Shown: positions 1 to 32,683 of the stretch, one piece after another
Layout: each line of letters starts with the position of its first letter
Position numbering within the stretch: position 1 is the first letter of the stretch
DNA from: Euglena gracilis
Taxonomy: Eukaryota
NCBI GenBank assembly: GCA_039621445.1
Contig: CP154954.1
Location: 14,743,667-14,807,666, forward strand
DNA length: 64,000 nt
Direction: 5' to 3'
The notes under the pieces: model-generated
Database searches by the model: none
The model's input: the letters and a program-made list of their open reading frames with translations, nothing else
What the model was told of the DNA's origin: nothing
Program-made: the position numbers and the translations under genes

Positions 1-1659
1 TTTTTGCAAGTAAAAAGTACACAAGTGGTCGATGTGTGCAAATGCAAACATCGACCATTTGGCAAAAATATTCAGGTAGTCGGTGTGTGCAAATGCACGA
101 ACTGACCATTTTGCACAGATCCACAAATGGTTGGCGTATGCAAATATGCACGTGTTCAGTGTACCGCAATCCATCTCTTCAGCTGAAGTTGTGGAAAAGA
201 TCTTTTTTTTTGCCTCATAAAAAGTTAAAAGCTGCCTTTTTTGTTTTCAGCTGGTCAAATTGTTTAAGGTTTGTGAATGGGAACAGTGTGCAATGTGCGA
301 CGAAGAACGGTTGCAAACGTCCCTCTGTTTTTTTTTAGCATTTTGACGGTTTATGTAAACCGACATGAAAACGATTGGAGGTAGGAGATAAGACATTCAT
401 TGCCCATGGAGCGGAGGCAATCGTTTTGTCACAGAACGTGACCTACCGAACAGGATGCACTGCCAGAGACCGGAATTTCTTCCCCGTGTAATCATTCAGC
501 ATCCACAATGGTTGTTCACCAAAAAAAACAAGTTCCAGAATTCAAAGTGTGCATCTATAATCTTCTGGTTACCTGGGTCTGGAGCCGGTTTCCCATTTTT
601 TACACCGTGCTGTTTCAAATCAAATCTCAAATATCTGTATCCAAAACACCACCTTTTTGTTGCTCTTGTGGCTACACTTGTGATGATGCCAGTTTTCTAT
701 GGACCTGAAGCATGTCCCCCCCCCAATTCTGATTACCCGGTCGTAGAGGATAACGTACCAGCCTCGGTGGTGGTTGTTGACAGCCTGGTGGCTGCCAGAA
801 CGCCATAACCTGCAATCATGTAATGTGACGGCTGCGGCCAAACGAAATCAATGGGACGAACGGCAAGGGCTTTTGAGGATTAACCATCGACCCATTGGCG
901 CGGGTGAGCGTGAGGCGCGACGTGCTCTTGGTTAACCGCATACCAGAGGTCTTTGTCTCCATTTTGACCTTTAGAGCAGAGGATGTGGCAGCTGGACTCG
1001 TGCAAACCCGAAGATACCAATGCCGGTGGTGGTTGGGGCGGCATACGATGTGGTCTGTTTGAACAAACACATCCCCATTATGGACCATTTCCCCTGCGGC
1101 CTGCACACAACTTGACAAACACCCCAGACACGCCCTCTTTCCCTCTCCTAAACCCCCCATCATTTTTAAATAAGATGTTTATCACCCCTGATCCCACTAT
1201 GGGTATGAAAACCGAATTGCACAAAAAAAAAAGCTTTTTTCCCGTTTTCATCCCCAAACAAAAATAACAAAATAAATTATTTCACCCCCACACCCCCCCC
1301 CAATGCTCCTTCAGAAAGAAAGTTGTTTTTACCCCACAACCCGTGAGGGAAAATTATTTGTGGGGGTGTTGAAGACGTATTTTTGGGATCATTTTTTTTC
1401 ATTATCGTTCGCGACAATTAATTTTCTGTAACATTTTTTGATGAATAAAATACAATTCTACTGCAGCTCAATTGGCAGAGTGTCTATTTTGTGTGATTTT
1501 CAGATTATATGAGGCACCTGGCTCCTCACTCGAGCCTCCTGGAGCCTCCTTCAGGTGACCTCCTCGGCCGGGTTCCATTTTTTTGGAGACCCCAAGGCAG
1601 GAAAAAACAAAAATGTCTATCAAAATTCCGAGGAGAAGCGGAGAGAAAAACCGGGTGTT

Positions 1660-1923: not shown

Positions 1924-3100
1924 CCACACCAACCAAAAGAAGTCTATGTGCGAGTTACACCACCCAACCACCCAAGTCAGTAAAAAATGTGTCGTCGTGG
2001 CATTTCAAGTCAGTTTGGCACCCCGCCACCCACCCACCCACTGCTGGAAAGGGCTGTTGTGTCCAATGTGGCTTTGGCCTTTAGTCTTTGGCCTTTAATG
2101 GCCATTCCAGTGTCGGCCATTCCCATGTTCTCACTCCCACATCACAGCCATATAGCCACTGTGTGGGCCATGTTTGCCGCATTCTTTTTAGTTTACACCT
2201 CCTGCTACAAGTTCATATGTGCTGCTGCTCTTTTCCAGATATTTTCATTTTCATTCACCCTTTCTCAACTCACCCCATTCTCTTTTTGATTTCTGATTCT
2301 GATTCTTTATATATTTTTTTTATTGAACTTGAACACCAGAAAAATGGACAACCTCAGTGAGATGTGAAGAAACCACGACTCTTTTTGGAAGGGTATTTGG
2401 AAGGGCAACTCACATACACACATCAAAAATCTCTCTGAAATGATACGGATGAATCTGGGGTTGTTCCATTGGAACTGGTTGCTCCAGCATAGCAAGTGTG
2501 TTGCAAGTATGTTGCTGAGATAGACAGACCGGTAGGCACCCAAATAATGCGAAACACAAAGAATGAGAGGAAGGGGCAGGGTTGGAGTGTCTACCCAGGG
2601 ATTTCGGGAACCTTCAAAACCCAATGTGTGATGTGTGATGGGTGGTGTGCGGAGTGGTTGACTCCCCACCCCCCAGCCAGGCCATATTACTGGGGCTGGC
2701 AGTGGGGTTGCCGGTTTTTAGATCGGAATTCCCACCAGTCTTCCCGTGCGCCCTTCCCCCCCCCTCTTAGGGGGCACCCACAAGACTCTTGGGGTCCCCT
2801 GCTGGAGGCGGGGTTTTGGCTATTTTTGGCACGAGGCACCGACTTTTTTTTACCCTCCAAATTACCTCCCAAAAGTGGGTCCCCAGACCTGTCTCTCCCC
2901 AGAGTGGTGGGGGTGGACCCCTGTGCTGGTATCCCTGGCTGGGGGCTGGGGGGGAACCGGGACCCCCCCCTAGTCTTTCAAGAAAAACCCTGATTTATAT
3001 GCAAGAGAGAGAGGCAGATATTAGCGATTCCGGAGAGGCAGATATTGGTTGTTATGTACATTGCATTACATTTTGTAATTCCATTTTTGTCATCCTCTGA

Positions 3101-5894
3101 GGGTCCCAGAAAATTTGGAATCCTCACTTTTGGTTACCTGGAGCCTCCAGGGAGGCTCCAGGGAGGCTGGTTACCTGAGCCTCCCTGGAGCCTCCCTGGA
3201 GCCTCCTGGACGCTCCCTAAAAAGGGAGCCTCCCTGGAGGCTGGTTACCTGAGCCTCCCTGGAGCCTCCCTGGAGCCTCCTGGAGGCTCCCTAAAAAGGA
3301 GGCTCCAGGGAGGCTGGTTACCTGAGGAGCCTCCTGGAGCCTCCCTGGAGCCTCCTGGAGCCTCCGGCAGGTAACCAATTTTGTACACAGGCCATGTTCA
3401 ACCCTCCATCTTTGCATCCGTTATATATTTACACACACAAATGACGTTTGTTTGTTTGCTATTTATGCCATGCCCCGCCAATTGCAGAAAGAATTGAAAA
3501 CCATTTATCTATTTGCCACAAAGACGCCATGTCCGCCTGATTTTGCTTTTACGGTTTTCCCGTACGCTGTGTCTGCCGATTTGTTGAAAACCATTTGTCC
3601 ATTTGCCACAAAGACGCCATGTCCTCCTGAATTTGCTTTCACCGTTTACCCGTTTGCTATTTACGCTTTGTCCGCCAAATTTTGTCCACACAAAAGGATG
3701 TTGTTATTAGGGAGCAGGGGAGGGGGGAGGGGGGTAGGGGGGAGAGGGGAAGGGGGTGGGGGGAGGGGTGGTCCGGGGGGGAGGGGGGCGGGGGGAGGGG
3801 GGAGGGGGGAGGGGGGCGGGGGGGAGGGGGCCGCAGGCCCCCTCCCCCCGCCCCCCCTCCCCCTCCCCCCTCCCCCTCCCCCCGCCCCCTCCCCCCCGGG
3901 CACAGCCAAACAAACACCACTTTGGATTTCACATGACCCTTTTTTTTTGCACGGCAAATAATTAGGTACAATTCTGGCCAAATAAAGGCATTTTTGGCTT
4001 CAATTAAGCTCTATGTTGCCTCCCAGCCTCCCATTTCACCCATCTTGGCTTTTTTGCAAAATGGTTTTGTTTTGTTTGCTAATTTCGGCTAATTTGCATT
4101 GATTTGGGCAAATAATGGGCTAATTTGGGTCAAAATACAGACGCTGTACAAGATACAGATGCAGGACAAGATGTCGTGGACGTAGATCCTAGACGAGATG
4201 CAGATGCTAGACAAAATGCAAACGCTGCACAAGATGCAGATGCTGGACAAGATGTCGTGGATGCAGATGCTGGACAAGATGCAGATGTTGGACAAAATGC
4301 AGTGGACGGAGATGCTAGACAAGATTCAGATGCTCGACAAAATGCAGTGGACGGAGATACTGGACGAGATGCAGATGCTGGGCAAAATGCAGACACTGGA
4401 CAGGATGCAGCTGGACAAGATGTCGTGCACGTAGATGCTGGACAAGATGCAGATGCTGGACGAAATGCAGACGCTGGACAAGATGCAAACGCCGGACAAG
4501 ATGCAGTGGTTGCAGATGCTGGACGAGATGCAGATGCTGGACAAAATGCAGACGCCGGACAAGATGCAGATGCAGGACAACATGTCGTGGACGCAGATGC
4601 TGGACAAGATGCAGATGCTGGACAAAATGCAGTGGACGCAGGCACTGGACGAGATGCAGATGCTGGACAAAATGCAGACGCTGGACAAGATGCAGATGCA
4701 GGACAAGATGTCGTGGACGCAGATACTAGATGAGATGCAGATGCTAGACAAAATGCAAATGTTGCACAAGATGCAGATGCTGGACAAGATGTCATGGATG
4801 CAGATGCTGGACAAGATGCAGATGCTGGACAAAATGCAGTGGACGGAGATGCTGGACAAGATGCAGATGCTGGACAAAATGCAGATGTTGGACAAGATGC
4901 AGATGATGGACAAGATGCAGTGGTTGCAGATGCTGGACGAGATGCAGATGCTGGACAAAATGTGGACACTGGACAAGATGCAGATGCTGGACAAGATGTC
5001 GTGGACGCAGATGCTGGACAAGATGCAGATGTTGAAATTAGCCAAAAGCAAATCTCAGAACTCCAGAACAACAAAACCAGAAATGTTCCTGCTGCAGACC
5101 AGTTCGCAGTGCTTCAATCGCAGTTCCTTGGACAACATGCAAATGCTAGACATGATGTATTGGTTGTAGATGTTGGAAAAGATGCAGATGCTGGACAACA
5201 TGCAGTGGTTGCAGATGCTGGACAAGATGCGGATGCTGGACAAGATGCATATGCTGGACAAGATGCAGTGGATGCACATATTGGACGAGATGCAGATGTT
5301 GGACAAGATGTACATGCTGGACAAGGTGCAGAGACCACACAATATGCAAATACTGGACAAGACGTTGACATTGGACAAGATTCAGACACCGGACAAGATT
5401 GAATGCTATTCAAGATGCAGACGTTGTCCAGATGTTTCACGTCTCTTCTTCTTGTGCCTTCTCGCTTCTTGTGCCTGCAATATCCCATGTCACATCCCCG
5501 GCGAGTAACTGCTGATTCATGCATTTCGAGTCTACAACACCACCGATTGCATCACGGCCCACGACTTCTCCCATTGTCGGCCTGTGTACACAAAACCGGT
5601 AACCCGAGCCTCCCTGGAGCCTCCAGGGAGGCTGGTTACCTGAGCCTCCCTGGAGCCTCCCTGGAGCCTCCTGGAGGCTCCCTAAAAGGGAGCCTCCCTG
5701 GAGGCTGGTTACCTGAGCCTCCCTGGAGCCTCCCTGGAGCCTCCTGGAGGCTCCCTAAAAAGGAGGCTCCAGGGAGGCTGGTTACCTAAGCCTCCATGGA
5801 GCCTCCCTGGAGCCTCCCTGGAGCCTCCCTGGAGCCTCCATGGAGCCTCCGGCAGGTAACCTCCAGTGCAGGATTCCATTTTTGCGGTAGACCC
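3101..5894. mobile_element. Non-autonomous cargo-carrying foldback/MULE-like DNA transposon with 9-bp TSD
   Basis: Perfect TSD ATCCTCTGA at 3092-3100 and 5895-5903; single empty site ATCCTCTGA at 41532-41540 in copy B. Imperfect TIRs GGGTC..AAAA.TGGAATCCT.CACT..GGTTACCTG; GGAGCCTCC arrays at ~3132-3377 and ~5598-5862; no transposase ORF. Superfamily assignment is inferred from the TSD length and modular ends. Confidence 0.9.
4135..5400. repeat. 18-bp minisatellite (GATGCAGATGCTGGACAA) with 27-bp variants, carried as transposon cargo
   Basis: Visible tandem array, interrupted by a non-repetitive insert at ~5034-5128. Confidence 0.95.
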
Positions 5895-6752
5895 ATCCTC
5901 TGACACGAATCAACCAAATATTCCTAGGGCATGTCATTTTGCAACTCACAGCTCCCAATTCTCCCAATATATAGTTTGCTTGTTATTCGGTTCTGAGTTA
6001 GGAACAAAATATGATTTCTTCCATTTTCCATCCTTGTCCGTTGCCTGTCAACAGAACCTTTATTTGTGCCGTTGCTGCTGCAGCAGGTCATTTTTTTTTT
6101 CCACTCAGTCCATCGCCGTGGAATACTGATGCAACTGAGTAATTGCGAAGTCCGCTGGGTGAGAGGGAGGGAGGAACGTTTGCCCTGCCCTGTTGTTGCC
6201 AGTCAGCCTTTGTCACAAACAGCCCAGACGCTGCAGAACGAGGGGGCCACACAGTAATGTTCACCTCACGTTTCCAAACAAAGGCCATCCTGAAGCAATA
6301 ATTTCCCCGGATTGTCGCTGTTTTTAATTTGAAATTAACCCAAGCGAACCAGCGCCTCTTTTCACCGTTTTTGTATGCATACCTCGCACACAAAAGTACA
6401 TTCATAGAACACAGGAGCAGTCGACGTGGCGATATTTGTGAATGTTGAAAGTTGATAATTGGACAAAGGTCCCCCCTGAAATTATAATACCAGAGATTTT
6501 CAATCCAGAGGAGAGTGGAGAAGAACGGAAGTCCAGATAACTCCGTGTACCACGGTGTTTATTTGATATATGTTCCAAGAATGAGACCGGTGAAATGGAG
6601 CAGGAGCACACCACGCTGCGGACCAGTTCCTTGGAGCCTTTTTGCTCCAAGGTTGTAGTAGAACCTCCCCCCTCGTGATAGCTGACCTTCAACCTCAGCC
6701 ACAAGACAAGGAGCCTGGCTTCTGGTTCTGTAACATATGATTCATATATAAT

Positions 6753-7771
6753 GGGGATGCCCACCCCGCAGTGCCGGCACTGCGTGGCACTGCATGGCAC
6801 CGCGTGGCACTGCGTGGCACTGCGGGCCGTTTACAGGGAGGGGCAAAATATGCACCGTGCAGTTTTTGCAGTTTTTTGCAGTTTTCACATTTTGGGTTTT
6901 TTGCAGTTTTTTGCAGTTTTTTTGCAGTTTTTTGCAGCTTTTTTTTTCTGAAAAAAAACTACACACGTGCAGTTTTTTGCAGTTTTTTTTGATTTCAGTT
7001 TTGAGGAAACCTGAGGTGCTCATTTTTTGGTGCTCTGCGCCTTGTTACGCTGTATATATTGTTTGAAGGGTGTTTCTCAAGAAAAAGTCTCTCAAGAAAT
7101 CTCTTCATGAGTTGTGATGTGTACAGTAATCCCGCCAGTTGTCTTGATCCAACTGTTTGCGAGATTCGTGGAGACGCAAAGGAGCACGAGCTTTGCAGAA
7201 GATTGGGCCTTGTCCCAAGCATTTTGGCCAAATATCACACAAGCCAAATGCTTCAAAGAAGTCATCCTTATTTGCAAGAAATTCCCAGACCATTCGGCAA
7301 TCCCCTAAAGACAGTATTCAAAGTTTGTGATGGTTGTTGTAGATTTTTTTTTAGTTTCGTAGATTTTTCTGCATCGTGACATGGGTGAAGTTCACCAGGT
7401 GATGGACCAAATGTTCCAAAACTGAACATCCCATTCATGAATTAAAAGCATAGAAACTTTCTGCATATGGGTATGTGCATTTTATTATGTGAACCAGCAT
7501 CCAAACCAAACACATGACGTGTGTTCGACATTTCTAGCCAGATGTGGCAAATTGGCCCAAAAAGGCAAAAAGTTGCACAAAACAACCACAATTGCCCTTG
7601 ATGGCCCTAAAGTTCCAATGATGCAAAAACTAGTTTTAAGGGCCCGCAGTGCCACGCAGTGTGACGCAGTGCCACGCAGTGCCACGCAGTGCCCACGCAG
7701 TGCCACGCAGTGCCACACGCAGTGCCACACGCAGTGCCACGCAGTGCCGGCACTGCCGGGTGGGCATCCCC
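6753..7771. mobile_element. Foldback-like non-autonomous element with modular TIRs built from 10-bp GCAGTGCCAC repeats
   Basis: Left end GGGGATGCCCACCCCGCAGTGCCGGCACTGCGTGG is inverted relative to right end CCACGCAGTGCCGGCACTGCCGGGTGGGCATCCCC. The paralogous site at ~42399-42423 lacks the insert. No clean TSD (AAT/AAA). Confidence 0.8.
6834..7030 (+). mobile_element. One-ended CAGGG-start MITE fragment with (TTTTTTGCAG)n array
   Basis: Highly similar to 25820-26000 in a different flanking context. Confidence 0.65.
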
Positions 7772-10700
7772 AAAGTCAATTTCCCACACAGGGGATTTCT
7801 TAAGGACCCCGGGGGGGTCCAGCCTCTGGCTGGAAAAAAGGCCGCTCACAGCCATTTTTGTGATTGTCATTCAGCCATTTGGCTATTTTTTTTACTTGGT
7901 TTAGTGTTTTGTGCATCTTTTTTTTTGGCTGCTTTGTTACTTCTGCCATTACTTTCTGGCTGATTCTGGCTGACTCGGTCATTTTTCAGTGACATTTTCC
8001 TTGTTGTTGGCATTTCTGAAGCGATATTACGATCAATCTTTCTGTTTTCATTGGTTGCAGCAATTTCTGGGTGGATCTCCCCAGTCGGCGCAGTCACTGT
8101 TGCAATTCCAAATAATTACGGATAATTATGGATCGCAACAAATGGTGCCCCATGCTCTGATTGTTGTCTTATTGACCACCTCTCAATAGCGATGCGAGGC
8201 TTGCAGCTGTCATTCAGTCTCCGCCTAAGACCCCGTGACCTGGTTGCTGTTGCCGTGCCCACGCCTGACGTAAACACCCCATCTCCTCACCCGTGACCCA
8301 TGACCCATATCTATTCACTCCGTACTTTGTTTGACGAGGTGTTCTCTCGCATTCCAAGCAGGGAGCCGCTTAAGCCGAAGGGCGCCTCATCCCCAGGCCC
8401 ACCAAATTTCTAAACGTACAAAGTTGGCCCCCTAAGGTTGCCCCCCACCTTTCATTCAATCATGACGTGGTTCACATGTGTCGAAGTTTTCGCCGTTCCG
8501 GGTTCCCCACTTGTCTGTGGACCCCGGGGTATTAACCAGGTTTTGTGCAGTGCTGAGCCCCTGACGTTGCCATTGCTGCAGCAAATGTTTGAGGATTGTG
8601 GCCAGGCCCAGCAGCCCGGCCCGGTCTGGTGGAACGGCCGTTAGCCCAGCCTGGCAGCCCACCGCTTTCCCGGCCTGGAAGCCCGGCGGCCGGCCCGTTC
8701 GGCAACCTGGCAGCCCGGCAGCCCGGCCCTGCCCGGCTGGCACCCGGCGGCCGGACTGGCAGCCCGGCTGGCCTGGGTCCGGGAGACCCAAAAATATGTT
8801 TTGGGCATTTTTTTTCGATTCTTTTCGACATTTTGGACCCGGAGTTTTATTCGACTTTTTTGACCCGGAAATGACCCAAGGTGCTGGGAAGCTGGCGGGT
8901 CGAAAAGCGTTCATTTACCCCTGGAAAACAGCTTTTTGGCCAATAACATGGTTCTGCGGCAAAAAGAATTTTCCGCTCGCTGCTTTTTTTTAAGCCCCGA
9001 AATGGCCGAAAACGAAGGAACCCCACGCTGTTTTGGGCAGTAAATTGGTCATATCTCGCGCTAGGTGGGGATTTATGGGGAAGTCAAAATATCATTAGAT
9101 AAAGCGTTCCAAGGGCTTCAATTTAGGTCTCCGGATATTTCCTTTGATTTTGCTTCATTTCCAAGATATTTTTGAAACCTCGATATTTCGGCCCCGAAAA
9201 CAGCCCAAGATGGCCCCAGAAACAGGCAAAATTGGCCGGAAAATGGCTGTAATTTGGGCTGCACGAAGAGTTTGGGTTCAGTAAAACATTGTTGGATATT
9301 TCATTCTTGGGCTTTTTTTCTGTACTGTGTACTGTTTCTTTTTTTTTTCTTGATGTATTTCGAAGTAAAATCGGGTTTTTTGATTGAAAATCGACCCAAA
9401 AAAAAAACTCAGGCGGGACATCTCGCATTTGAGATTTTTTTCTTTGTTGATGTGCACAATTGCACACATTGACATCTTTCAGACATCTTTTATGAAAATG
9501 ACATGATATAACCCCTAAAAAACCGAAAATGTGAACAAGATGTGATGGGGTGCCCCAAGACGCGGAGGTGAAAACAGGGATTTTAGTCGAGAGGATGCCC
9601 AGGAACAGGCATCACTGTGATCCCCAGGTGAAAATGGTCATTTTGTTCTTTGCCTAGTTTTGTTCCATTAAAAAGTTCCAAATATATGCAAAACGGGCAG
9701 TTTTGGCAGGTTTTGGGGGGGGGTCAAATAAAAAAATTCCGGTGCTTCGAGCCGGTCACTTGTAACAAAACCACCACCAACCTGCAAGCGGACCCCCCTG
9801 GGCCCAAGCGAAATTTGGTTTCTGGTGGCTTGCAAAATGGCTAGCTAGTGGATCCAGCAGGGATAGATGGGAAGTCCTTCAGCTTTGAGTAGGTGGTGGG
9901 AGGGTCCAGACCTTCCTGGGGGTGAGGTGCGAGGCCCCAGATGTAGGGAGGGAGTGGCCAGACCTCCACCCCCCATCCTGGGCTGGTTTCAAAAGTAGCG
10001 AAAAATTTTCCTCCGGTGCTGCGCCCAAAGACAGCCCAGCAAGACATGAGGGCCAGTTGGGGGAGATTGGGGGACCCGCACCTCGGACCTCCCAGGGGTC
10101 CAGTTAGTAGCTTTTCCAGTGGCGATTTTTCAGACCGCCCGATTATTACAGTTCCTCATTTTTCATTACAAATCGTCCCATCATGCTGTTTTTTTTTGGT
10201 ACTGGCACTCGATTAGCCGCCCCTGGTTCTGAACCTTTGCAATCTGACCAAGTTTTACAATAATCATTTTTTGTTCTGTCCTAGTTAGTTTGTATGTTAT
10301 AGTAAGACAATATTTTCCTTCCCACCTCACTCGTTGCACTGCAACCACTTTGACGATGCCGTGTCTTTGCCTGTGGTGACAGAAGGTGCTTTGTTTGCAG
10401 CTGTCTGTGCAGTGTCCACTGAACTGCACTGCAAGAGTGTGATATTTGTTGTTGTTTTTTTACTTTTTTTTCTTGTTTGGCTCCCTGTTTGTGTTTTGAG
10501 GCACTTCCCCCCCCCCCCATGTGTTATGAACCCCTGAACAGGGGGGGTCCGAACCTTCCAGTTTGTCAGCTTTCATAGCACAGAAAAAGCCCATACACCC
10601 GCGCTCAAAGAATTTACCCAATTCGGACTCTCCAGATTTCATTTTGGTGTCTAATCTATACATCTCTCTAAGCTTTTGCGCAACCCCCCGGGGGCGGGGG

Positions 10701-11989
10701 GGGGCGGCTGCAGCCAGCCCCGATTTGGGCCCAGCCCAGCCGCAGCAGCACCCCGGGGGGGGTGCTGCTAGTCCAGCTAGCCAGCCCCTTTTTGGGGGTC
10801 CAGCCCAAAATTTTTCGGCGCAAAGCGCCGAAATTTTTTGAAAAACTGTGTTCAAAAGTGGCCAAAAATGGGGTTTTGGGGGCGTTTGGGGCATTTTTGG
10901 GGGGTTTCAGATGCATCATTTTTTCAAAACTGTGTTCTGCAGGTCATTTTTGGGCATTTTTCCGATTTCAGTCCAGCTCGCCCCGGGGGGCCGGGTCCAG
11001 CCCCCCCCCCCCCCGGGGGGGGGGCTGGGCTAGCCAGTGCAAGATTTGCTAGCCCCAGCCCAGCACCCCCCCCCCCGTTTTCCTTATAATGTGCATTTTT
11101 CTGTCGGAAACAGACGTTCTCTGATGAAAATGGTGTATCCACCCGAAATTTTTTCAACTTTCTTCTGGAGGACTCCCTTGAGGGGCTTCGTGTTTTTTTT
11201 GGGCTGTTTTGGGAGTTTAGCAATCTTTTTGTGTGCGACTTCCGGAATTTCTGGGACAAAGAGGGGGTTGGCTTTCAGAATTTGAAAGTAGCAAGTTTGA
11301 CTGATTCAGCCTGCGTCCATCAACCAATCGCACCGCTGACAACTAATTGTACAGCTTCCCACGCTTTCCCGTGCTTCGAGCCCAGGCTTCTGCAGTTGCG
11401 CTGAAATGCTAAATTGGTGTAAGGAGAGAATGGGGGGCAAGCGCCTGGGGGTGGTGGGGAGCTCCCCTCACCATGTTCAAAAACTACGACATGTGCGCAG
11501 AATCGGCACATTACCCACGCCGGGGGGGGGGGGGGGGCGCAAGCGCCGGGGTGAGTGGAATCCAGACCAAAGCTCGGTGTGCTTCGGAGAAAAGAACCGG
11601 AAGCCTTTTTTTCCGCAGAAGTCTCTCCCCATTCCTTTTGGTAGTCGCTTCATGGAAGACGTTCGGCAAGCTTGGCAACATTGAGGTGGTGAAGTGGCGC
11701 AAGTCGAGCCCCGCTTCATCTTGCAGCCCCGAAGCTGGTTGTTGCTGGCCCAGGGTGAGGTCCCCTGGGCCCAAGAAAACGTTTGGTGGTGCTTTGCTGA
11801 TTCTTTGGCACAATGCAGTCACCCTCGCCTACGCACCCAATGACCAAGCTACCTCTCTGCATTTGAGCATTGAAATGGTAACCGATACCGCTGACGTTAT
11901 TGTTTGCTTCGGGGGGCACACCTCTTGCAATCTGAAGTGTGCCACTGGCTGAATGACTCTCCTTCCCAGCCTGCCATAGGGTGGACTCT

Positions 11990-14510
11990 GGCCTGAATCG
12001 CCCCTGACCGCCTTTAATTTGACCTCCCTGAACCATCAAATGTGCTGATGAGCTACCGCGGGTAGGAGGTTTCGCAGGCGAATTTCCGTGATTCCAGCAA
12101 TGATTGTTTTGATTGTTTTGTTCTTGTTCCAATTATCGGGAAGTCGTCAGCTGAATATGAAACAAACATTTCCGCCTGGCCATGCAAAAGATAACTGCAA
12201 GCAAAAGAGCGATATAAAGAAAATCTCAGTAATTCAAACAGAGCCGCCATGGATGCCTTTCAAACCGACGGGGAAAATGAAAATGTGTGTGAGTATTAAG
12301 TGTTTTCTTGAGGACCGCAAAGTCCGGCTGCCAAGGTGCTGGCTGGACCCCCTTTTTCAGCTGAAAAGTTAAGGTAATAACACCCGCCCTCAAAACACCC
12401 GCTCTTCACCGACTTTTTTATATATACCAAATTTCATTTATTTGCATCCAAAACAGATCCCCCAGCCCACCTTCGCCCTGGGACCTCTCCCACCCTCTCC
12501 CACCCCCCCCCCGTCACCCTCACTCTCCGCCTGTTTTTTGATTGCATTTGCATTTGGATCTTTTGTTTCCCACCTGAGTTGGTCTGAAATGTCTGCTTGT
12601 CTTCCCTTCTCCTCCGTCCGCCATGGGGCCCACACAGTCAGACGCCCCCCAGTCTAGTGCGGTGCCCCGAGGCGCCGTCCCCTCACTCGCCACCGCACGT
12701 GTGCCGCATTCTGCCTCGGTCGCCTCCATCCCCAGGGTGGGATGGGCAGCTGGTTTGCCCAGGCGTGGGGATGCCATTTTCCAGAAAGGGACCATGGAAG
12801 CTGAGGATGGGGGAGCACCGGAGCTCCCCCAGGTTTTCACCTCGCATTTTGCTTTTTGACACCAAGATCAGGCTGTATTGTCGGGTGACGACCCCACCCG
12901 GGGGGGCGGTGCCTGTCTGGGCACTCCAAGGCCCCCCAAATCTGACCTGAGTTTTGAAGGCTTTTCCAAAGTTTCCAATGCCCCCCACCGGGATCTGTGA
13001 AAACTGTCGGGGCGCCAGCAAAATTTTGTTGTGTTTCATTTTTTATATAAAAATGTTTAAGCCGTTCGCTTTTGGCGTCCCATGCTTTGCCGGAGCTGCC
13101 GGCCCACCCTGGCGGTCTCTTCCTCCCGCCGTTGTGCCTCTGCCACTTGGCCGGGACGCTCCCCCCTCCGGTCTGCACCGCCAGCAAGCTCCTACAGTAA
13201 AAATGGCCGAAAATGAAAAAAAAAGTTTCTTTGGTGGATTCCGGTTGAAGTTGCTCGACTCCCAGAAAAAAGAAGCCTATTCCCAAAAACCTTGCATTTG
13301 CATATTGTAACAAAAACTCTTTGAATCTTTAATCCCTGAGCACCAAACGTGCTTGGATGTGTTTACATGAATGATCAAATGCGTTGTTGGCATGCAGGGA
13401 TTTAAAGGTAATTTTACCCCCACCGATAGGAAAAAAATCGCCGAAAATGGCCGAAAATGGCAAAATTCTGGGGTCAACTGTAGGTGCTTGACCTGACTGC
13501 ACCTCCAGCGTGCCGGGCCTTCCACGCGCGCTCAGCCACCGCGAGGTGCTCACTCTCAGGTGGCAAAAGGACCTTTCCTCCCCTGTGGAGAGCCACACAA
13601 GACAACAACAAGAAGTGGGTGGTTGGTGTGTGCAATTGCACACGTCAACCATTCAAATGTTCAGAAATGTTGACTGTTCCACGATTTCAGGACTGAAGAA
13701 CTGCATTTTTATACTCAGTTCTTCAGGATGAAACCTGGAAATGTTGTGTATTTGTTGTTCCAGGGGCTAAGAAATGGTTTTTCACAGCTTCGATTGCTGT
13801 TGTTCAAATTTAGGCGTGCAGGCTGGTCCTTTATATGTATTTAAATTCTGCAAATACCTCTGAATATGCATACATTTGTAACAATCACATAACCATTTGT
13901 GCAATGTACAAACTCATCATTTTTGGCTGGCATCCACTGTTCACAATTGCACAAACGGTTGGTGTGCTCATTTGCGTTCACCAAATCGTTCAGTCAATAT
14001 CCCAGGTTAATGAGACAACCATTGCAGGTTTCTAAACACACCTGCTGGATGATGCTGCTGGATGCCGCACATTGATTTTTTCCCCCAGGAGCATTTTTGC
14101 CCCCAGGAGGGAATCCAACCTCCCCCTCTTGAGGTGTCCAAACCACCCCTCCTACTAATTTCATAACCTTGTCGGACCCCCCCCCCTGGTCAGAAACAAA
14201 AATAAATGTTTCTGCGACCGCCTCCCTGGTCACAGACGAACATTCATGGTCCTTGAACAGGACGGAGGGGAAGTTGTTGCGGGTTGATAAAACGTCGTGA
14301 TCTGGACGATGATGAACAATGTATCCAATTCCTAGTGATCACGCTTCTTCATGAGTTTTCACAGTTCAACCCTGGGGGGGGGGGACTGAAGCTTGTCCAA
14401 ATTTCCCACGAGGGTGGTCCGCGGGTGGGTGGGGGTTTTGACACAAAACTGAAGAAAATTTTTATTTGACCCCCCAAAATCAAAATTTGCCAAAAATGAC
14501 CGTTTTGCAA
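11990..14510. repeat. Recent ~2.5-kb direct duplication, copy 1
   Basis: Near-identical to 15395-17925; ORF-track peptides are identical (e.g. 12520..12840 and 15888..16208). Confidence 0.9.
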
Positions 14511-15394
14511 TTGAATGGTAATCGATACCGCTGACGTTATGTTGCTGCGGGGGGCACACCACCACTTTGCAATCTGAAGTGTGCCACTGGCTGAAGCTCT
14601 CCTTCCCGCTGCCATGGGAGGACTGAACGCCCTGACAGCCCAATTGCCTTTCCCTACTGTGTCCTTGGTGATGTTGGAGGTTTAGAAGGGAATTTCCATT
14701 GTTGACTGGTAGATTGTTTGTCTTTATTCGGGAATCTGGTCACGTGCTTGTTTTCCCTCCATGCTCGGGTTTGGTCACTGGGTGTACTCTTTTCGTAGTT
14801 GGTTATGGATGTTTGAATTACCCATTTGTTGCAATGTGTGTTCAAGTTGTTTTTTTGTATTCGTCACTGCTTTTCCCCGGCTTGCTTGAATTTTATGTGT
14901 GTGGTGAATCAACGCTCACATCTCGTTCGTGTTTGACACCTGTTATTTTTATTTGGTTTGTTATGATCTCCTCATTTTGGCCTTTTGTTTTTTGTTCTTA
15001 CCTTGTTGGATGACTTTTTTTTCCTTCGGTCAGTTTTCTTTGATGTTTTGGGGGGGGTATCGGATTTTGGCGGGTGTCTGTTCCGTACCAGGCACCGATT
15101 GGACTTATAAGGGTGCTGCGCTGTTGGTTTTCATTTATTTGAAAATTGTTCGATTTTTTGTTGCGTGCTTGGTGCACCCTTGGGGGGGTGGGGGGGTGGG
15201 TTGGTGGGGGTGGCGGGGTTCGGGGTGTGTGGGGTGTTTTGGTGGTTTGGTGAAGTTGTGGAGTTTGGGCTATAGTTTGGTGGGGTTGGATCTGTGTGTG
15301 GCGAAAGTGCGGGGGTTAGATTTGTGTGGTGTTTGTGTGAAGTTGTTTAACTGGTGTGTTTTTGCTTGGGAGCTGGGTCCCGCACGTGTCCATG

Positions 15395-17925
15395 CCCCTG
15401 AACCATCAAGCTGCTTGGTGTACCGCGGGTGGAGGTTTCGCAGGCGAATTTCCATGATTCCAGCAATGATTGTTTTGATTGTTTTGTTCTTGTTCCAATT
15501 ATCGGGAAGTCGTCAGCTGAATATGAAACAAACATTTCCGCCTGGCCATGCAAATATAAACTGCAAGCAAAAGAAGCGATATAAAGAAATCTCAGTAATT
15601 CAAACAGAGCCGCCATGGATGCCTTTCAAACCGACGGGGAAAATGAAAATGTGTGTGAGTATTAAGTGTTTTCTTGAGGACCCCAAAGTCCGGCTGCCAA
15701 GGTGCTGGCTGGACCCCCTTTTTCAGCTGAAAAGTTAAGGTAATAACACCCGCCCTCAAAACACCCGCTCTTCACCGACTTTTTTATATATACCAAATTT
15801 CATTTATTTGCATCCAAAACAGATCCCCCAGCCCACCTTCGCCCTGGGACCTCTCCCACCCCCCCCCACCCCCCCCCCCCGTCACCCTCACTCTCCGCCT
15901 GTTTTTTGATTGCATTTGCATTTGGATCTTTTGTTTCCCACCTGAGTTGGTCTGAAATGTCTGCTTGTCTTCCCTTCTCCTCCGTCCGCCATGGGGCCCA
16001 CACAGTCAGACGCCCCCCAGTCTAGTGCGGTGCCCCGAGGCGCCGTCCCCTCACTCGCCACCGCACGTGTGCCGCATTCTGCCTCGGTCGCCTCCATCCC
16101 CAGGGTGGGATGGGCAGCTGGTTTGCCCAGGCGTGGGGATGCCATTTTCCAGAAAGGGACCATGGAAGCTGAGGATGGGGGAGCACCGGAGCTCCCCCAG
16201 GTTTTCACCTCGCATTTTGCTTTTTGACACCAAGATCAGGCTGTATTGTCGGGTGACGACCCCACCCGGGGGGGGTGCCTGTCTGGGCACTCCCAGGCAC
16301 CCCAAATCTGACCTGACTTTCGAAGGCTTTTCCAAAGTTTCCAATGCCCCCCACCGGGATCTGTGAAAACTGTCGGGGCGCCAGCAAAATTTTGTTGTGT
16401 TTCATTTTTTTTATATAAAAATGTTTAAGCCGTTCGCTTTTGGCGTCCCATGCTTTGCCGGCGCTGCCGGCCCACCCTGGCGGTCTCTTCCTCCCGCCGT
16501 TGTGCCTCTGCCACTTGGCCGGGACGCTCCCCCCTCCGGTCTGCACCGCCAGCAAGCTCCTACAGTAAAAATGGCCGAAAATGAAAAAAAGTTTCTTTGG
16601 TGGATTCCGGTTGAAGTTGATCTACTCTCAGAAAAAGAGAGCCTATTCCCAAAACCTTGCATTTGCATATTGTAACAAAAACTCTTTGAATCTTTTTAAT
16701 CCCTGAGCACCAAACGTGCTTGGATGTGTTTACATGATTGATCAAATGCATTGTTGGCATGCAGGGATTTAAAGGTAACTTTACCCCCACCTATAGGAAA
16801 AAATCGCCGAAAATGGCCGAAAATGGCAAAATTCTGGGGTCAACTGTAGGTGCTTTACCTGACTGCACCTCCAGCGTGCCGGGCCTTCCACGCGCTCAGC
16901 CACCGCGAGGTGCTCACTCTCAGGTGGCAAAAGGACCTTTCCTCCCCTGTTGAGAGCCACAAGACAACAACAAGAAGTGGGTGGTTGGTGTGTGCAATTG
17001 CACACGTCAACCATTCAAATGTTCAGAAATGTTGACTGTTCCACAATTTCAGGACTGAAGAACTGCATTTTTATACTCAGTTCTTCAGGATGAAACCTGG
17101 AAATGTTGTGTATTTGTTGTTCCAGGGGCTAAGAAATGGTTTTTCACAGCTTCGATTGCTGTTGTTCAAATTTAGGCGTGCAGGCTGGTCCTTTATATCT
17201 ATTTAAATTCTGCAAATACCTCTGAATATGCATACATTTGTAACAATCACATAACCATTTGTACAATGTACAAACTCATCATTTTTGGCTGGCGCATCCA
17301 CTGTTCATCATTGCACAAACGGTTGGTGAGCACATTTGCGTTCACCAAATCGTTCAGTCAATATCCCAGGTTAATGAGACAACCATTGCAGGTTTCTAAA
17401 CACACCTGCTGGATGTTGGTGTACGTTTTGACTAAAAATATAGGAAAACGCGATTTTTGGGCCTTTTTCAAGTCCCAAAATTTTCCCGCACATTTTTTCC
17501 CCCAGGAGCATTTTTGCCCCCAGGAGAGAATCCAACCTCCCCCCTCTGGAGGTGTACAAACCACCCTGCCTACTAATTTCATAACCTGGTCGACCCCCCC
17601 CCCGGTCAGAAACAAAAAAATGTTTCTGCGACCGCCTCCCTGGTCACAGACGAACATTCATGGTCGTTGAACAGGAGGGATGGGAAGTTGTTGCGGGTTG
17701 AGAAAACGTCGAGGTCTGGACGATGATGAACAATGCAACCAATTCCTAATGATCACGCTTCTTCATGAGTTTTCACAGTTCAACCCGGGGGGGGGGGACT
17801 GCAGCTAGTCCAAATTTCCCACGAGGGCGGTCCGCAGGTGGGTGGTGGTTTTGATACAAAACTGAAGAAAATTTTTATTTGACCCCCCAAAATCAAAATT
17901 TGCCAAAAATGACCGGTTTGCAATT
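15395..17925. repeat. Recent ~2.5-kb direct duplication, copy 2
   Basis: Near-identical to 11990-14510. Confidence 0.9.
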
Positions 17926-18024: not shown

Positions 18025-20125
18025 AAATTGTCCCATCATGCTGACTTTTCATATTGGCATTCGAATTCACTCCACCGGTCCTGGACTTTTTCACCTGCAC
18101 TTCTGACCCAGGTTTTCAGAAAACATTTTGTTCCACCCTACTTGTTATATGTGTTATAGAAGGAGAACGCTTCCTTCCTTCGCACCTCATTCGTTGCACT
18201 GCAGCCACTTTCACCGTGCCATGCCTTTGCCTGTGGTCACGGAGGGTGCGTTGTTTGTGGATGTCTGTGCAGTGTCAACTGAACTGCACTCCAACCCTCT
18301 CCACTGGTGAGAGTGTATTCAAAACGTGGCTTTTGCTTTTGTCGTTTGTTTGACTGTTGTTGTTTTGTTTGACCCTCTGTTTGTGCGTTGCTTACCCCCC
18401 CCCATGTGTAATGAACCCCCTTACCGAGTGAACAGGGGGTCCGAACCTTCCAGGTTCAGGCATGTGCCGTCACTGCTTGACGGGGCAACTTATCGGAAGT
18501 TTTGGCACAATGCTGCTTTCGGCATGGCCCCATTCCAACCCGTCATGGAACCACGCAACCTGCTGAAGAGTCCCCCACTGTCTGAATCTTTTGTTGAACA
18601 CTTGTTGCATTTTTCTCCACATCAAAATGCATTACACGTCGTGTTTTAAGTTTTTGTCCCCCAAACATCCACTCCTATCGACAGAAGTGATTCTTTTGCA
18701 TTTCCAACTCAGGCAAATTATTTTTGATGTGAAGTGAAGTGGGATCGGCTTCCCCCTCAGGTCTCCCAATCTCCCCTCGGGTTTCCAGTCCCCCCCCCAC
18801 ACTGTCTGTGGAAACTGATGGGGCGACACCAAATTTTGTGGTGTTTGGAAATGAAATGTCGAAGTTTTCAAGTCCCAAAATTTTCCTGCACATTTTTTTC
18901 CCCCAGGTGCATTTTTGCCCCCAGGAGAGAATCCAACCTCCCCCCTGAACAGGGGGGGTCCGAACCTTCCAGTTTGTCAGCTTTCATAGCATAGAAAATT
19001 CCCTGACACCCGCGCTCAAAGAATTTACCCAATTCGGACTCTCCAGATTTTACTTTGGTGTCTAATCAGCTTGGGGAGGGGGGAAAATACATGAAATAAA
19101 AATTAACCTGCGTTTTATGGATTCCAGACCATTTCACATTCCCTCATTGGAAAGTGGTCAACCAACGATGGTGGGTCATAAATTGTCACTGCGTGACAGG
19201 ACAAGGCATCGGAATATTGGCACAAGGCTGGCCCCTTTCCAACCCATTTGGAACCATGCAACGTGCTGTAGCGTCCCCAATGGCTGCATCATTCGTTGAA
19301 CATTATTATGCTCCTGCAACTTTGTATTTTGGTGGGATTTCAAGACCCTCAAGGGGGGGGGACTTTACAGAATTTACAAGTTTCGGGGGGGGGGGAGTCA
19401 AGCTTACCTGGGTGACCCATGCAAGATTTGCTGTGTATTCCTATTTTCCTCAATAATGTGCATTTTTTCGGAAACGGACGTTCTCTGATGAAAATGGTGT
19501 ATCCACCCGAAATTTTTTCAACTTTCTTCTGGGGCACTCCATTGAGGGGCTTCGTGTTTTTTGGGGTATTTTGGGGGTTTTGCAATATTTTTGTGTACGA
19601 CTTCCTGAATTTCTGGGACAAAGAGGGGGTTGGCTTTCAGAATTTGAAAGTAGCAAGTTTGACTGATTCAGCCTGCGTCCATCAACCAATCGCCCCGCTG
19701 GCACCTAATTGTACAGCTTCCCACGCTATCCCCTGCTTCGAGCCCAGGCTTCTGCAGTTGCGCTGAAATGCTTTATTGGTGAGAAGGGAAGGAATGGGGG
19801 ACAAGCGCCTGGGGGTGGTGGGGAGCTCCCCTCACCATGTTCAAAAACTACGACATGTGCGCAGAATCGGCACATTACCCACGCCGGGAGGGGGGGGGGG
19901 GCGCAAGCGCCGGGGTGAGTGGAATCCAGACCAAAGCTCGGTGTGCTTCGGAGAAAAGAAACGGAAGCCTTTTTTTCCGCAGAAGTCTCTCCCCATTCCT
20001 TTTGGAGTCGCTCCATGGAAGCCGTGCGGCAAGCTTGCCACCATTGAGGTGTTGAAGTGGCGCAAGTCGAGCCCCGCTTCATCTTGCAGCCCCGAAGCTG
20101 GTTGTTGCTGGCCCAGGGTGAGGGT
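18025..20125. repeat. Additional internal duplicate of block 10170-11760 (also ~48950-50440)
   Basis: For example AAGTTTGACTGATTCAGCCTGCGTCCATCAACCAA occurs at ~11293, ~19654 and ~50361. Confidence 0.85.
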
Positions 20126-20194
20126 GAGGTAATGCGGACTGCCCTGAACCTGAGGTCTCGGTGTTTGAAGGCAGAACTTTTTGCAAAATGATTT

Positions 20195-22177
20195 GGGTCC
20201 CAGAAAATCCTCTTCTTTCGGTACCTGGAGCCTACAGGGCCGCTTCGCGGCGCCTGGTTACCTGAGCCTTCCTGGAGCCTCCCTGAGCCTCCCTGGAGCC
20301 TCCGGCAGGTAAGTTATTTTGTACATAGGCCATGTTCGACCCTCAACCCCTCTGCATCCGCACACAACTCACGTTTGCCCATTTGCTATTTACACCATGA
20401 CCGCCGATGGCAGAATTGGTTGAAACATTTATCCATTCGCCACAAAGACGCCATGTCCGCGTAATTTTGCTTTTACCGTTTTACCCGTTTGCTATTTACG
20501 CCTTGTCCGCCAAATTTTGTCCACACAAAAGGATGTTGTTATTGGGGAGCTGGGGAGGGGGGAGTGGGGTAGGGGAGAGAGGGGAAGGGGGAGGGGGGGG
20601 GAGGGAGGTCCGGGGGGTGGGGGGCGGGGGGAGGGGGCCTGTGGCCCCCTCCCCCCGCCCCCTTTTTTCGCCTCCCCCCGCCCCCCTCCCCCCCGGGCAC
20701 AGCCAAATGAACACCATTTTGGATTTCACGTGACCCTTTTTTTGCACGGCAAATAATTTAGGTACAATTCTGGCCGGATAAATTCATTTTCGGTTTCAAT
20801 TAAGCTCTATGTTGCGTCCCAGCCTCCCATTACACCCATTTTTGCTTTTTTGGCAAACGGTTTATTTTTTTTTTTTGCTAATTTGGGCTATTTTGCATTG
20901 ATTTGGGCAAATATTGGGCCAATTTGGGTCAATATGAACAATGTTATGGCATTTTTGGTCATTTTGTGCCATTTTGGTGATTTTGGGTATTTTTTTTTGG
21001 ATTTTTGTAAAAATTTTGTGGATATTGTTGGCATTTTTGGGCTATTTGGGTTATTTGAAGCTATTTTAGGTCGTTTGGTTGCTCTTTGGGGCTTTTGTGG
21101 TCATTTTGGCTCGGTTGTGAGCCAGTGGATGCAGGCATCAGGCAAGATGCAGACATGGACAAGGTGCAGATGCTGGACAAGATGCAGACACTGGACAAGA
21201 TGCCGTGGATGCAGATGCTGGACAAGATGCAGACGATGGACAAAATGCAGACGCTGGACAAGATGCAGTGGTTGCAGATGCTGGACAAGATGCAGACGCT
21301 GGACAAGATGCAGACGCTGGACAAGATGCAGATGCTGGACAAGATGCAGATGCTGGAAAAGATGCAGTGGTTGCAGATGCTGGACAAGATGCAGATGCTG
21401 AACAAAATGAAGACGCTGGACAAGATGCAGATGCTGGACAAGATGCAGTGGCTGCAGATGATGAACAGGATGCAAATTCCAGACAAGATGCAGTGGACAC
21501 AGATACTGGACGAGATGCAGATGTTGGACAAGATGTAGATGCTGGACAAGTTGTAGATGTTGGACAAAAGAGGACAATATTGGACAACATGCAATGGTTG
21601 AAGATATTGGACAACATGCAATGGATGCAGGTACTGGACAAGGTGTAGATACTGGACAAGGTGCAGAGACCACACAACATGCAAATACTGGACAAGATGT
21701 TGACATTTGACAAGATTCAGACAACGGACAAGATTCAAATGCTAGTCAAGATGCAGATGTTGTCCAGATGTTTCACATCTCTTCTTCTTGTGCCTCGCTG
21801 TGCCTGCATTATCCCATTATCCTTGTCACATCTCCGGCGAGCAACTGCTGATTCATGCATTCTGAGTCTACAACACCACAGATTGCATCACGGCACACCA
21901 CCTGTCCCACTGTCGTCCGGTGCACAAAACTGGTTACCCGAACCTCCCTGGAGCCTCTATGGAGGCTCCCTGGAGGCTGGTTATCTGAGCCGCCCTGGAG
22001 CCTCCCGGAGGCTCCCTAAAAGGGAGCCTCCCTGGAGGCTGGTTATCTGAGCCTCCCTGGAGCCTCCCTGGAGCCTCCATGGAGCCTCCCTGGAGCCTCC
22101 CCGGAGCCTCCCTGGAGCCTCCCTGGAGCCTCCGGCAGGTAACCTCCAGGGCAGGATTCTATTTTTGCGGTAGACCC
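20195..22177. mobile_element. Second, more decayed copy of the 3101-5894 element
   Basis: Same termini (GGGTCCCAGAAAAT ... TTTTTGCGGTAGACCC) and same cargo order (unique part, G/C tract, 18-bp minisatellite). Flanks AAATGATTT / AAATGAACG match 6 of 9. Confidence 0.85.
21125..21760. repeat. 18-bp minisatellite, shorter paralog inside the second element copy
   Basis: Same GATGCAGATGCTGGACAA unit. Confidence 0.95.
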
Positions 22178-22516
22178 AAATGAACGCAAAGTTACAATCA
22201 TTTTCAAAGCCATGTGCGAGTTAGGCGGCCTAAGACAGCGAAACCTTGTGTTTGATTCTTTTCCAACAAAAATGGTGATACTGCGGCTCGTTGTTTCATC
22301 CTATTCGGGGCTGGTGCCGCCAGCCCACCCTGGCAGTCTCTTCCGTCCACCGGCGTGCCTCTGCCATTGGCCGATACGCTGCCCCCTCCGGTCTGCACCG
22401 CCAGCGCTGATTGCACCTCCAGCGCGCCGGGCCTTCCCTCCCCTGGACTGACCCCGTGTGGAAAGCCGTGCAAGACAACCGTTCGCACGTCGCTTTCTTT
22501 TGCTCTTTGCCATGAG

Positions 22517-22934
22517 CAGGTATTATTATTATTGTGTATTTTTTTCGAAATTTTGAGGCATTTTAAGACATTTTTTTGAAGACTTTTTATGGCATTTTAA
22601 GGTGTTGTTTTCCAGGGTGGTCCAAGGGTTATCGAACCAATGTTTTTGATTTTGAATGTTCCCCAAAATCAAAACGTCAAAAAACACTTTTTTTGAGTTT
22701 AGGACAGTAATGTTCCAGCGATGCCAGAAATATTTTTTTATTCCAGGGTTTGGCTCGTTTTTGGCGAGATTTTGCGCTTTGATACTTGTTTGGTTGGAGA
22801 AAATCCTGCCAGTCCAAACTGTTTAAGGCATTTTCAGACATTTTCAAGATTTTAAAGGTATTTTGGCAACATATTTTCAGCCGCCTTTTAAGGCATGTTA
22901 GGTTTTTAAGGCGCCTTAAAAATAATAATGTCTG
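22517..22934. mobile_element. hAT-like MITE with 8-bp TSD
   Basis: Ends CAGGTATTATTATT ... AATAATAATGTCTG; flanks GCCATGAG / GCCAGGAG (7 of 8); TTTTAAGG subterminal repeats. The same insertion is present, split, in copy B at 59293 and ~60765. Confidence 0.8.
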
Positions 22935-24072
22935 GCCAGGAGGGAGGGGGCTGCAGGTGGACAGGGCCAGCTAGACGAGATCAATTAGACAGGAAACACC
23001 ACAGCAAGCCCCATGAAAAAAAATAGCCACCCAATGTAATCAACCATTTTGTGAGTAACCCCCAAGTTTCAGCAACATTTCGAACTATATTTTGGCCAAA
23101 TCCAAGCAAACCCAAACAGAAGGAACCCCTGGCCTGATGCTATGAAGATAATTTTCATGAAAATTGCATTGGAACGGCTGAAAGAAGCATTCTTTAAATC
23201 TGGGCAACCCCCAAATTTAAATCACCCTAAGCCTTTTTTCGGAACAAAATATAGGTGACTGAACTGCTTATATTTTTGGAGATTTTGCAATCACAGCAGG
23301 TATTTTCCAAGGGACAGGCATTCCTTTCTAAGACACAACGTGTCATTGGTTGCCCCTGTCAGGAACACCCAAAACCTTGCTGTGTTTTGAACAGGGAGGT
23401 GTTTTTGTGTTGGTTCAAGTGAGGTGTCTCTCCTTTGATTAACCACCCTAGGCTTTTTGTCCGCCACCTCCTTACATGCATGTGCGGTTCCCCTGTCCCC
23501 CTAAAGTGGACCAGCGGCCATAACTTGTCACCTTGGACCCGTGTTTTAACATTCTAGCTTATTTTGTGCAAGGCCCAACAAAATCCTTAACAATACAGAT
23601 TAAGATTAAGCCGCTTAAGATTGACCCTGGCCCTCCCTTCATTTGTGCCCAGGCAAAGCGCCGGGTGGGGGGGGGTTATGTGCAGAAAACACTGCAATTT
23701 TGACAAGGGGGAATGCAAATTTTTAAACTGCGATGGTTAACATTTTTTTTTGCAGAGTCCAAAATCATAATAATTTATTTTTTGCATCCTTTTTCGACTT
23801 TTTTTTGTGCTCGCGACAAAATGAAGTTGCATAAAACATATTTTTAGACCAATTCCATCGGCAGTAATTGCATAAGAATGCAATTGGGCAAACCAACAAT
23901 ATCATTTTTCAAATTCGCGTCACGTGTTCTTTTGTTGCAGCATTTTTGGTGTTTATTTGATTGCTTTTTTTGAAGAAAAAAAATTGCAAAAGAATGTCTT
24001 TGTTTTTTTTTTTGTGTCCTTGAAGAGAAAAGTGCAAATCATTGTCCGAAAATGCACCGTGTTCGCATATGG

Positions 24073-25819: not shown

Positions 25820-26000
25820 CAGGGGGGTGTAAAATATGCACCGTGCAGTTTTTGCAGTTTTTTGCAGTTTTCACGTTTTGGGTTTTTTGCAGTTTTTTGC
25901 AGTTTTTTGCAGTTTTTTTTTTCTGAAAAAACTGCACACGTGCAGTTTTTTTGCTTTTTTTTTTGATCCAGTTTTGAAGCAACCTGAGATGTTTATTTTG
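25820..26000 (+). mobile_element. Second copy of the (TTTTTTGCAG)n MITE fragment
   Basis: Shares AAAATATGCACCGTGCAGTTTTTGCAG... with 6834-7030. Confidence 0.65.
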
Positions 26001-32667: not shown

Positions 32668-32683
32668 CTCTCTCTCTCTCTCT

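Follow-up and report, generated by a model that had tools for sequence, protein, structure and literature searches.

We describe a mobile element in a 64-kb stretch of Euglena gracilis DNA (contig CP154954.1, positions 14,743,667 to 14,807,666 of the forward strand). This stretch is the DNA that was analysed, hereafter the window, and the element census, the masking counts and the copy comparisons given below were all made within it. The element, here called copy 1, occupies 2794 bp between two perfect 9-bp repeats and has inserted into one member of a pair of duplicated segments whose other member still carries the unoccupied site. It is non-autonomous and encodes nothing, its two arms can each fold into a long hairpin, and a second full copy in the window has the same interior order. 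We consider it probable that copy 1 is a DNA transposon of foldback structure, non-autonomous and moving by cut-and-paste, most likely from the Mutator superfamily sensu lato, with Rehavkus-like elements as the closest described architecture. It fits a foldback Mutator element because of its 9-bp duplication, its non-coding middle and the minisatellite just inside one arm, and the foldback and Mutator-like affinity proposed in a preliminary description of this DNA is likewise the best structural match that we found. The family is presumably new. In kind it is an ordinary, already described sort of mobile element with one unusual trait, namely self-complementary arm arrays that run with the same polarity at both ends.

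Insertion of copy 1 and other loci of the family

Both flanks of copy 1 align to a paralogous segment further along the window, the left flank (2448-3100) to 40909-41540 at 66% and the right flank (5895-6747) to 41532-42403 at 74%. This paralog lacks exactly the DNA between the two 9-mers and retains a single ATCCTCTGA. Because the filled and the empty site form a pair, copy 1 is a true insertion, and the pair proves that the insertion postdates the segmental duplication and made a 9-bp target-site duplication (TSD). The two TSD copies agree at 9 of 9 positions in a fixed register, for which our own arithmetic gives a chance probability of about 4e-6. Mutator elements have TSDs of 8-11 bp, typically 9 bp, and this length is seen at copy 1 with its 9/9 match and empty site, the match at copy 2 being 6/9. 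Filled site, empty paralog and perfect duplication together make a clean, dated insertion.

Just to the left of the TSD, 12 nt at 3078-3089 (ATTCCATTTTTG) are identical to 5873-5884 within the right terminal domain of the element, and the empty paralog has a related yet different sequence at the corresponding position. This identity could reflect a target preference, a repair footprint or chance; T-rich words of the TTTTTGC type are frequent in the window DNA.

Copy 2 is full-length and either older or divergent, with 627 of 761 aligned ungapped columns (82%) identical to copy 1. Its layout runs from a short left arm of about one unit through a G/C tract, a T/G-rich block and the satellite to a right arm at 21915-22177. 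The 9-mers that flank it, AAATGATTT (20186-20194) and AAATGAACG (22178-22186), agree at six of nine positions, the first six being identical (chance about 0.01, again by our own arithmetic). No empty site for copy 2 was found among the window paralogs; at the candidate, a paralog at 11.7-11.9 kb, alignment of the left flank reaches the insertion point but the right flank does not continue from there.

Two partial loci complete the family. The solo left arm is flanked by 9-mers that differ from each other and lies in a 709-bp block (59417-60125) that is private to one paralog. The two paralogs also differ by the inversion of a segment of about 0.9 kb (22681-23592 versus 60126-60964), and one of its breakpoints falls exactly at this block. 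No element remnant was found at the other breakpoint (60964), and a tie between the solo arm and the adjacent inversion was set aside for that reason and is noted only in passing. The second partial locus is a degenerate right terminus, which was recovered by an nhmmer profile of the right terminus (E = 0.0032) and by BLAST with the arm core (E = 1.6e-8), with no left end detected upstream of it.

All four loci share one orientation, and the likeness of copy 2 and the solo arm to copy 1 stops at the element borders. Within the window, the right-terminal 24-mer occurs only at 5871-5894 and 22154-22177 (versus 0 in 100 shuffles), the inner-domain 15-mer has three matches (versus a shuffle mean of 0.26), and the combination of arm words is found nowhere else. 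Further, a prokaryote genome collection queried with the arm core and the right terminus returned 0 matches for each, as expected for eukaryotic DNA, and three element-specific strings had no match in searchable full-text papers. For annotation, these are four loci in 64 kb to be masked as one repeat family, and the arms are likely to be trouble spots for assembly or rearrangement. The preliminary description had delimited the 2.8-kb element with its perfect TSD, the empty site in the paralog, the second copy and the solo arm, and our alignments reproduce each of these.

Arms, interior and coding capacity

Each arm follows one plan, in which an outer terminal domain of about 31-33 bp is followed by a tandem array whose units, delimited by GGTTACC, measure about 73 bp, and then by a short inner domain (Table 1). 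The units are composed of 11-bp GGAGCCTCCCT words and their complements and are near-palindromic, and they number about one in the left arm of copy 2 and three to four in the other arms. The preliminary description spoke of long modular terminal inverted repeats (TIRs). The arms are indeed modular and hairpin-forming, but true inversion between them is confined to about 41 bp at the outer end and about 17 bp at the inner one; set in inverted orientation, the left and right outer domains give 55 matches between two 70-nt ends. The arrays themselves are direct repeats, those of copy 1 (3141-3365 and 5606-5828) being 95.2% identical in direct and 72.4% in inverted orientation. Word counts have the same polarity: GGAGCCTCC outnumbers GGAGGCTCC in every arm (9-11 versus 2-4 in the four long arms, 2 versus 0 in the left arm of copy 2), and the complement of CCCTAAAA is never seen in the arms on the plus strand.

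Because the units are near-palindromic, each arm folds alone into a long hairpin, the left at -103.9 kcal/mol (z = -12.4) and the right at -104.3 kcal/mol (z = -10.7). The left-right duplex has a calculated energy of -210.2 kcal/mol and the cofold reaches -230.9 versus -208.2 kcal/mol for two separate hairpins, and these models suggest that pairing between the arms is about as favourable as pairing within each arm. Measured against the terminal repeats of Mutator and Rehavkus elements, the outer ends are inverted, the units range from about one to four, and the arrays are direct (95% versus 72% inverted) with the arms still able to pair. With three-domain arms, stable folds, a left-right duplex and a middle without coding capacity, the element has the features of the Tetris-like foldback class.

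The interior between the arms of copy 1 measures 2194 bp, and its order, with three unique segments separated by a G/C tract and an 18-bp minisatellite, is common to copies 1 and 2. The G/C tract folds at -86.2 kcal/mol (z = -4.35). Copy 2 alone has a T/G-rich block of about 190 bp (20936-21125) ahead of the satellite, and copy 1 alone has a duplication of about 90 bp in segment 1 (3494-3563 / 3584-3653). The satellite is 1291 bp long in copy 1, including a 98-bp non-repeat interruption (5031-5128), and 640 bp long in copy 2 (21123-21762), and all of its higher-order periods found by Tandem Repeats Finder (TRF) are multiples of 9. Its outer edges are collinear between the copies and its bodies carry copy-specific variants; in a k-mer comparison of copy 1 with copy 2, GATGTCGTGGA occurs 4 versus 0 times and CAAAATGCAG 8 versus 1 times. 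The arrays have therefore turned over after the copies separated. From the end of the satellite to the right arm there are 163 bp in copy 1 and 153 bp in copy 2. The preliminary description was right that the interior, minisatellite included, moves as a unit, since it is common to two copies at different sites, and that the satellite differs in length between them; the 90-bp internal duplication that it counted in this unit exists in copy 1 and is absent from copy 2.

A Pfam scan covered 470 window open reading frames (ORFs), made up of 80 of the 105 ORFs of at least 130 aa, all 373 selected ORFs of 70-129 aa, and 17 further ORFs in or overlapping copies 1 and 2. The first pass had skipped ORFs that began within a satellite, had an X in their sequence or were among several overlapping frames in a tandem repeat; the 17 additions took in most of the satellite frames 130 aa or longer, together with one ORF from the left edge of copy 2. 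No family scored above its curated cut-off among the 470 ORFs, where two sub-threshold chance matches were seen, none was found in the 17 ORFs in or overlapping the copies, and no transposase domain was present in the 470. Because no ORF scanned, in the copies or elsewhere in the window, matches a Pfam family, the element is non-autonomous. Two interior frames, one in the satellite and one across segment 3 and the right arm, had 0 relatives in a large protein collection, and Rfam at gathering thresholds gave 0 matches in the whole window. The satellite is open in all six frames, since its 18-bp unit contains no stop codon. The most protein-like of them, D-A-D-A-G-Q, has one internal stop in 1287 bp and no third-position bias, and a coding minisatellite was rejected on the lack of codon-position bias, of relatives and of Pfam matches.

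Table 1. Loci of the family in the window and modules of copy 1
Feature	Position	Strand	Evidence or remark
Copy 1, 2794 bp	3101-5894	+	full element between two 9-mers
Left TSD copy, 9 bp, ATCCTCTGA	3092-3100	+	same as 5895-5903; present once in paralog
Left outer terminal domain, begins GGGTCCCAGAAAA	3101-3131	+	exact in copy 1, copy 2 and solo arm
Left-arm array, GGTTACC-delimited near-palindromic units of 37 + 74 + 73 + 61 bp	3132-3376	+	TRF period 73-74; unit decomposition
Left inner domain, contains TTTTGTACACAGGCC	3377-3393	+	inverted partner of 5579-5593
Unique interior segment 1	3394-3715	+	homologous to copy 2 20318-20550
G-run tract then C-run tract, hairpin	3716-3900	+	inverted repeats I9-I14; shorter in copy 2 (20544-20700)
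Unique interior segment 2	3901-4130	+	87.7% to 20697-20929 over 235 columns
18-bp minisatellite, consensus CAAGATGCAGATGCTGGA	4131-5421	+	TRF, repeat families D1 and D2, k-mer comparison
Unique interior segment 3, satellite to right arm	5422-5578	+	5400-5600 84% to 21738-21934
Right inner domain	5579-5597	+	inverted partner of 3377-3393
Right-arm array	5598-5861	+	polarity as in left-arm array
Right outer terminal domain, ends GCGGTAGACCC	5862-5894	+	24-mer also at copy 2 right end
Right TSD copy, 9 bp, ATCCTCTGA	5895-5903	+	abuts copy 1 right end
Unoccupied target site	41532-41540	+	one ATCCTCTGA; both copy 1 flanks align up to here
Copy 2, full-length, older or divergent, 1983 bp	20195-22177	+	both termini and interior order as in copy 1
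Solo left arm	59542-59828	+	97.2% to 3101-3387 over 289 columns; outer terminus into inner domain, then broken
Degenerate relic right terminus	1527-1591	+	51/65 matches to 5830-5894

Readings of the element and its surroundings

If the element is a foldback Mutator transposon, as we favour, a transposase supplied from elsewhere in the genome would move it, recognising the terminal domains at the outer ends (about 30-40 bp) and, probably, the GGAGCCTCC-type words of the subterminal arrays. Both ends would be cut, the element would be inserted at a 9-bp staggered break, and repair would produce the 9-bp duplication. The interior, with its unique segments, its G/C hairpin tract and a minisatellite about 160 bp inside one arm, would be a middle domain proper to the family and not captured host DNA, and the minisatellite would travel with each copy and then grow or shrink in place by unequal exchange or slippage. 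We infer the superfamily, the sequences bound by the transposase and the descent of the satellite from an autonomous parent instead of by capture. A module native to the family and turning over in place is a better reading of the minisatellite than captured cargo.

Several observations weigh against a Rehavkus-like Mutator assignment. No transposase was found in the window, and the superfamily call has TSD length and architecture as its sole basis. Duplications of 8-9 bp are produced by superfamilies besides Mutator too, for instance Merlin. A perfect TSD is seen at copy 1 alone, that of copy 2 being 6/9 and without an empty site. The arm arrays are direct and not inverted repeats, unlike published inverted termini, and 153-163 bp of unique sequence separate the satellite from the arm. 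Further, with no reading frame to give the element an orientation, a position "before the 3' TIR" cannot be strictly matched. Finally, the published hosts of Rehavkus are arthropods and annelids, a narrow range (PMC6446971).

The element might belong to another DNA-transposon superfamily with 8-9-bp duplications, or to an undescribed one, and have reached its foldback architecture by convergence, which we hold to be unlikely. Foldback-like arms are described from unrelated groups as well, such as Galileo of the P superfamily (PMC3573991), and no transposase is seen in the window. However, the 9-bp TSD, the subterminal tandem repeats and the end-proximal minisatellite in combination match the Mutator and Rehavkus descriptions best. 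The TSD of hAT elements is 8 bp long and that of Galileo 7 bp. A Galileo-type duplication does not fit, and both a hAT and a P-type (Galileo) element were rejected on the 9-bp length. A miniature inverted-repeat transposable element, a type of a few hundred bp at high copy number, was also rejected, the full copies being 2794 and 1983 bp long.

It is doubtful, and a little more so, that the element represents a distinct foldback architecture, in which the near-palindromic arrays run with one polarity in both arms and have short inverted domains on their outer and inner sides. Were this true, either arm could form a cruciform unaided and could also pair with its counterpart, and the arms would be hot spots of breakage and recombination, shedding solo arms and seeding local inversions. 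A hint of arm-seeded inversions is the location of the solo arm, exactly at the breakpoint of the inverted segment of about 0.9 kb.

The preliminary description had favoured a Pack-type origin, in which a Mutator-like element captured host DNA containing a minisatellite, which it has since been dispersing. In its favour, the interior (about 2.2 kb) has no relation to the arms and forms one moving unit in two copies, and non-autonomous Mutator-like elements are described as often having heterogeneous interiors, host fragments included (PMC5225508). However, the 17 ORFs of the copies contain no Pfam family, the two interior frames have no protein relatives, the satellite frame lacks the codon-position bias that past coding constraint would leave, and neither a donor locus nor any second homolog of the interior was found in the window outside the elements. 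Moreover, a minisatellite beside one terminal repeat is a known trait of Rehavkus and of some Phantom elements (PMC6446971), and because it is a published hallmark of these groups no capture event is needed. The claim of capture found no support, and we regard it as quite improbable.

We judge it just as improbable that the arms are small hairpin elements, each mobile in its own right, two of which happen to flank a piece of DNA in the same orientation and co-mobilise it. Such a composite would suit arms that fold on their own, arm cores that are direct repeats at 95%, and the finding of one left arm on its own and of a relic right end. The outer and inner domains of the left arm nevertheless have their inverted partners in those of the right arm, as expected for one symmetric element, and the solo arm, with its mismatched flanks and its break inside the inner domain, points to truncation or rearrangement and not to an insertion of its own. 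Although the window is rich in old segmental duplications, it is extremely improbable that the shared blocks come from segmental duplication or recombination with a coincidental 9-bp repeat, a reading contradicted by the filled and empty site pair and by copy 2 and the solo arm, which share nothing with copy 1 outside the borders.

The DNA around the putative foldback Mutator element has the look of eukaryotic non-coding DNA rich in repeats. About 1-13.2 kb and 38.9-59.1 kb are related by an old collinear segmental duplication, in patches of 66-83%, some of them inverted. No period-3 pattern of substitutions or mismatches was found in any of the paralogous patches (16 of 16 pairs), and the surroundings therefore look non-coding. 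Younger duplicates are 12026-14512 / 15396-17925 and 11078-11760 / 19444-20123 (94%). The window has a CpG observed/expected ratio of 0.58, a TA ratio of 0.46 and a strong excess of homopolymer dinucleotides, with 163 runs of G or C that are 7 nt or longer (the longest 21) and a plus strand that is T-rich almost throughout. The dinoflagellate spliced-leader motif had 0 matches in the window, and a dinoflagellate origin was rejected.

A second, unrelated foldback-like element of 1021 bp lies at 6752-7772, with exact 15-nt inverted termini (TGGGGATGCCCACCC) and arms made of 10-bp GGCACTGCGT tandem repeats. It is missing from the paralog near 42400-42420, where the flanks are too diverged for a TSD to be read, and an internal piece of it (6834-7026) recurs without termini at 25820-25999. 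Five tandem units of about 852-892 bp, 93-96% identical, occupy 53663-58123 in one of two paralogous segments only, with a partial unit at 36173-36551; these units contain palindromes of G-runs and C-runs and have no Pfam match. The region 32400-36000 is a GC-rich block (59-63% GC) with a 13-N gap (32655-32667) and long open frames without a Pfam match. Within it are a duplication of about 640 bp (33661-34297 / 34556-35191), 99.5% identical and spaced by 894-895 bp, and a (CT)58 microsatellite at 35199-35313. Finally, ARAGORN called a doubtful 96-nt tRNA-Gly(CCC) at 37278-37373, unrelated to the element. The call sits in a repeated segment (37018-37364 versus 46126-46470, 79%) and may be a tRNA-related repeat or a false call.

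Comparison with described foldback elements

The FB elements of Drosophila melanogaster have long arms of short tandem repeats, a 9-bp TSD and frequent rearrangements. Their arms are true inverted repeats, whereas the arrays described here are direct and each arm is self-complementary.

Closer in architecture is Rehavkus, which is described with TIRs of 26-400 bp, a mini-satellite that precedes the 3' TIR and a TSD of 9 bp (PMC6446971). With Rehavkus (in Repbase, for example, Rehavkus-1_TC) the window element has in common the 9-bp TSD, a minisatellite just inside one terminal repeat and copy-variable tandem repeats (PMC6446971; PMC12581902; PMC10218199). The Rehavkus trait of a minisatellite just before one (3') TIR is found here 153-163 bp before the right arm, in an element without an ORF to orient it. 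Rehavkus differs in having a PHD-finger DDE transposase, of which the window element has none, and the arrays here are of the same polarity and not inverted; the two are likened by description only.

Tetris elements are described as having three-domain arms, a non-coding middle and TSDs of 8-10 bp, and DAIBAM as a short Tetris derivative found at inversion breakpoints (PMC4079207). Tetris and DAIBAM of Drosophila virilis and D. americana resemble the window element in their flanking, tandem-repeat and inner arm domains, in a variable repeat number and in many rearranged copies (PMC4079207). Arm repeats of about 220 bp have seeded satellite arrays in Tetris, whereas here the 18-bp array lies in the middle and the arm units are near-palindromic and 73 bp long.

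Non-autonomous derivatives of Muta1, a Mutator-like element of Aedes aegypti with type 2 foldback structure, are described as having 8-9-bp TSDs, a terminal motif followed by variable subterminal repeats, and heterogeneous non-coding interiors (PMC5225508), all of which are seen here. They differ in their 12-bp units set in truly inverted 145-bp arms and in having a known autonomous partner that is active in yeast (PMC5225508). Plant Pack-MULEs are alike in Mutator-type TIRs, TSDs of about 9 bp and an interior unrelated to the transposase (see also PMC6446971). The host gene fragments that define the interior of Pack-MULEs were looked for in the interior of the window element and not found.

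Tandem repeats carried by transposons are already well described, as are foldback elements that make 9-bp duplications, and the element opens no new question. Its putative kinship with Rehavkus, Tetris and Muta1 would be a likeness of architecture, drawn from descriptions, as distinct from demonstrated membership. The element might extend Rehavkus-like elements to a host lineage where they have not yet been described, and it adds one more case that links DNA transposons with the seeding of tandem repeats.

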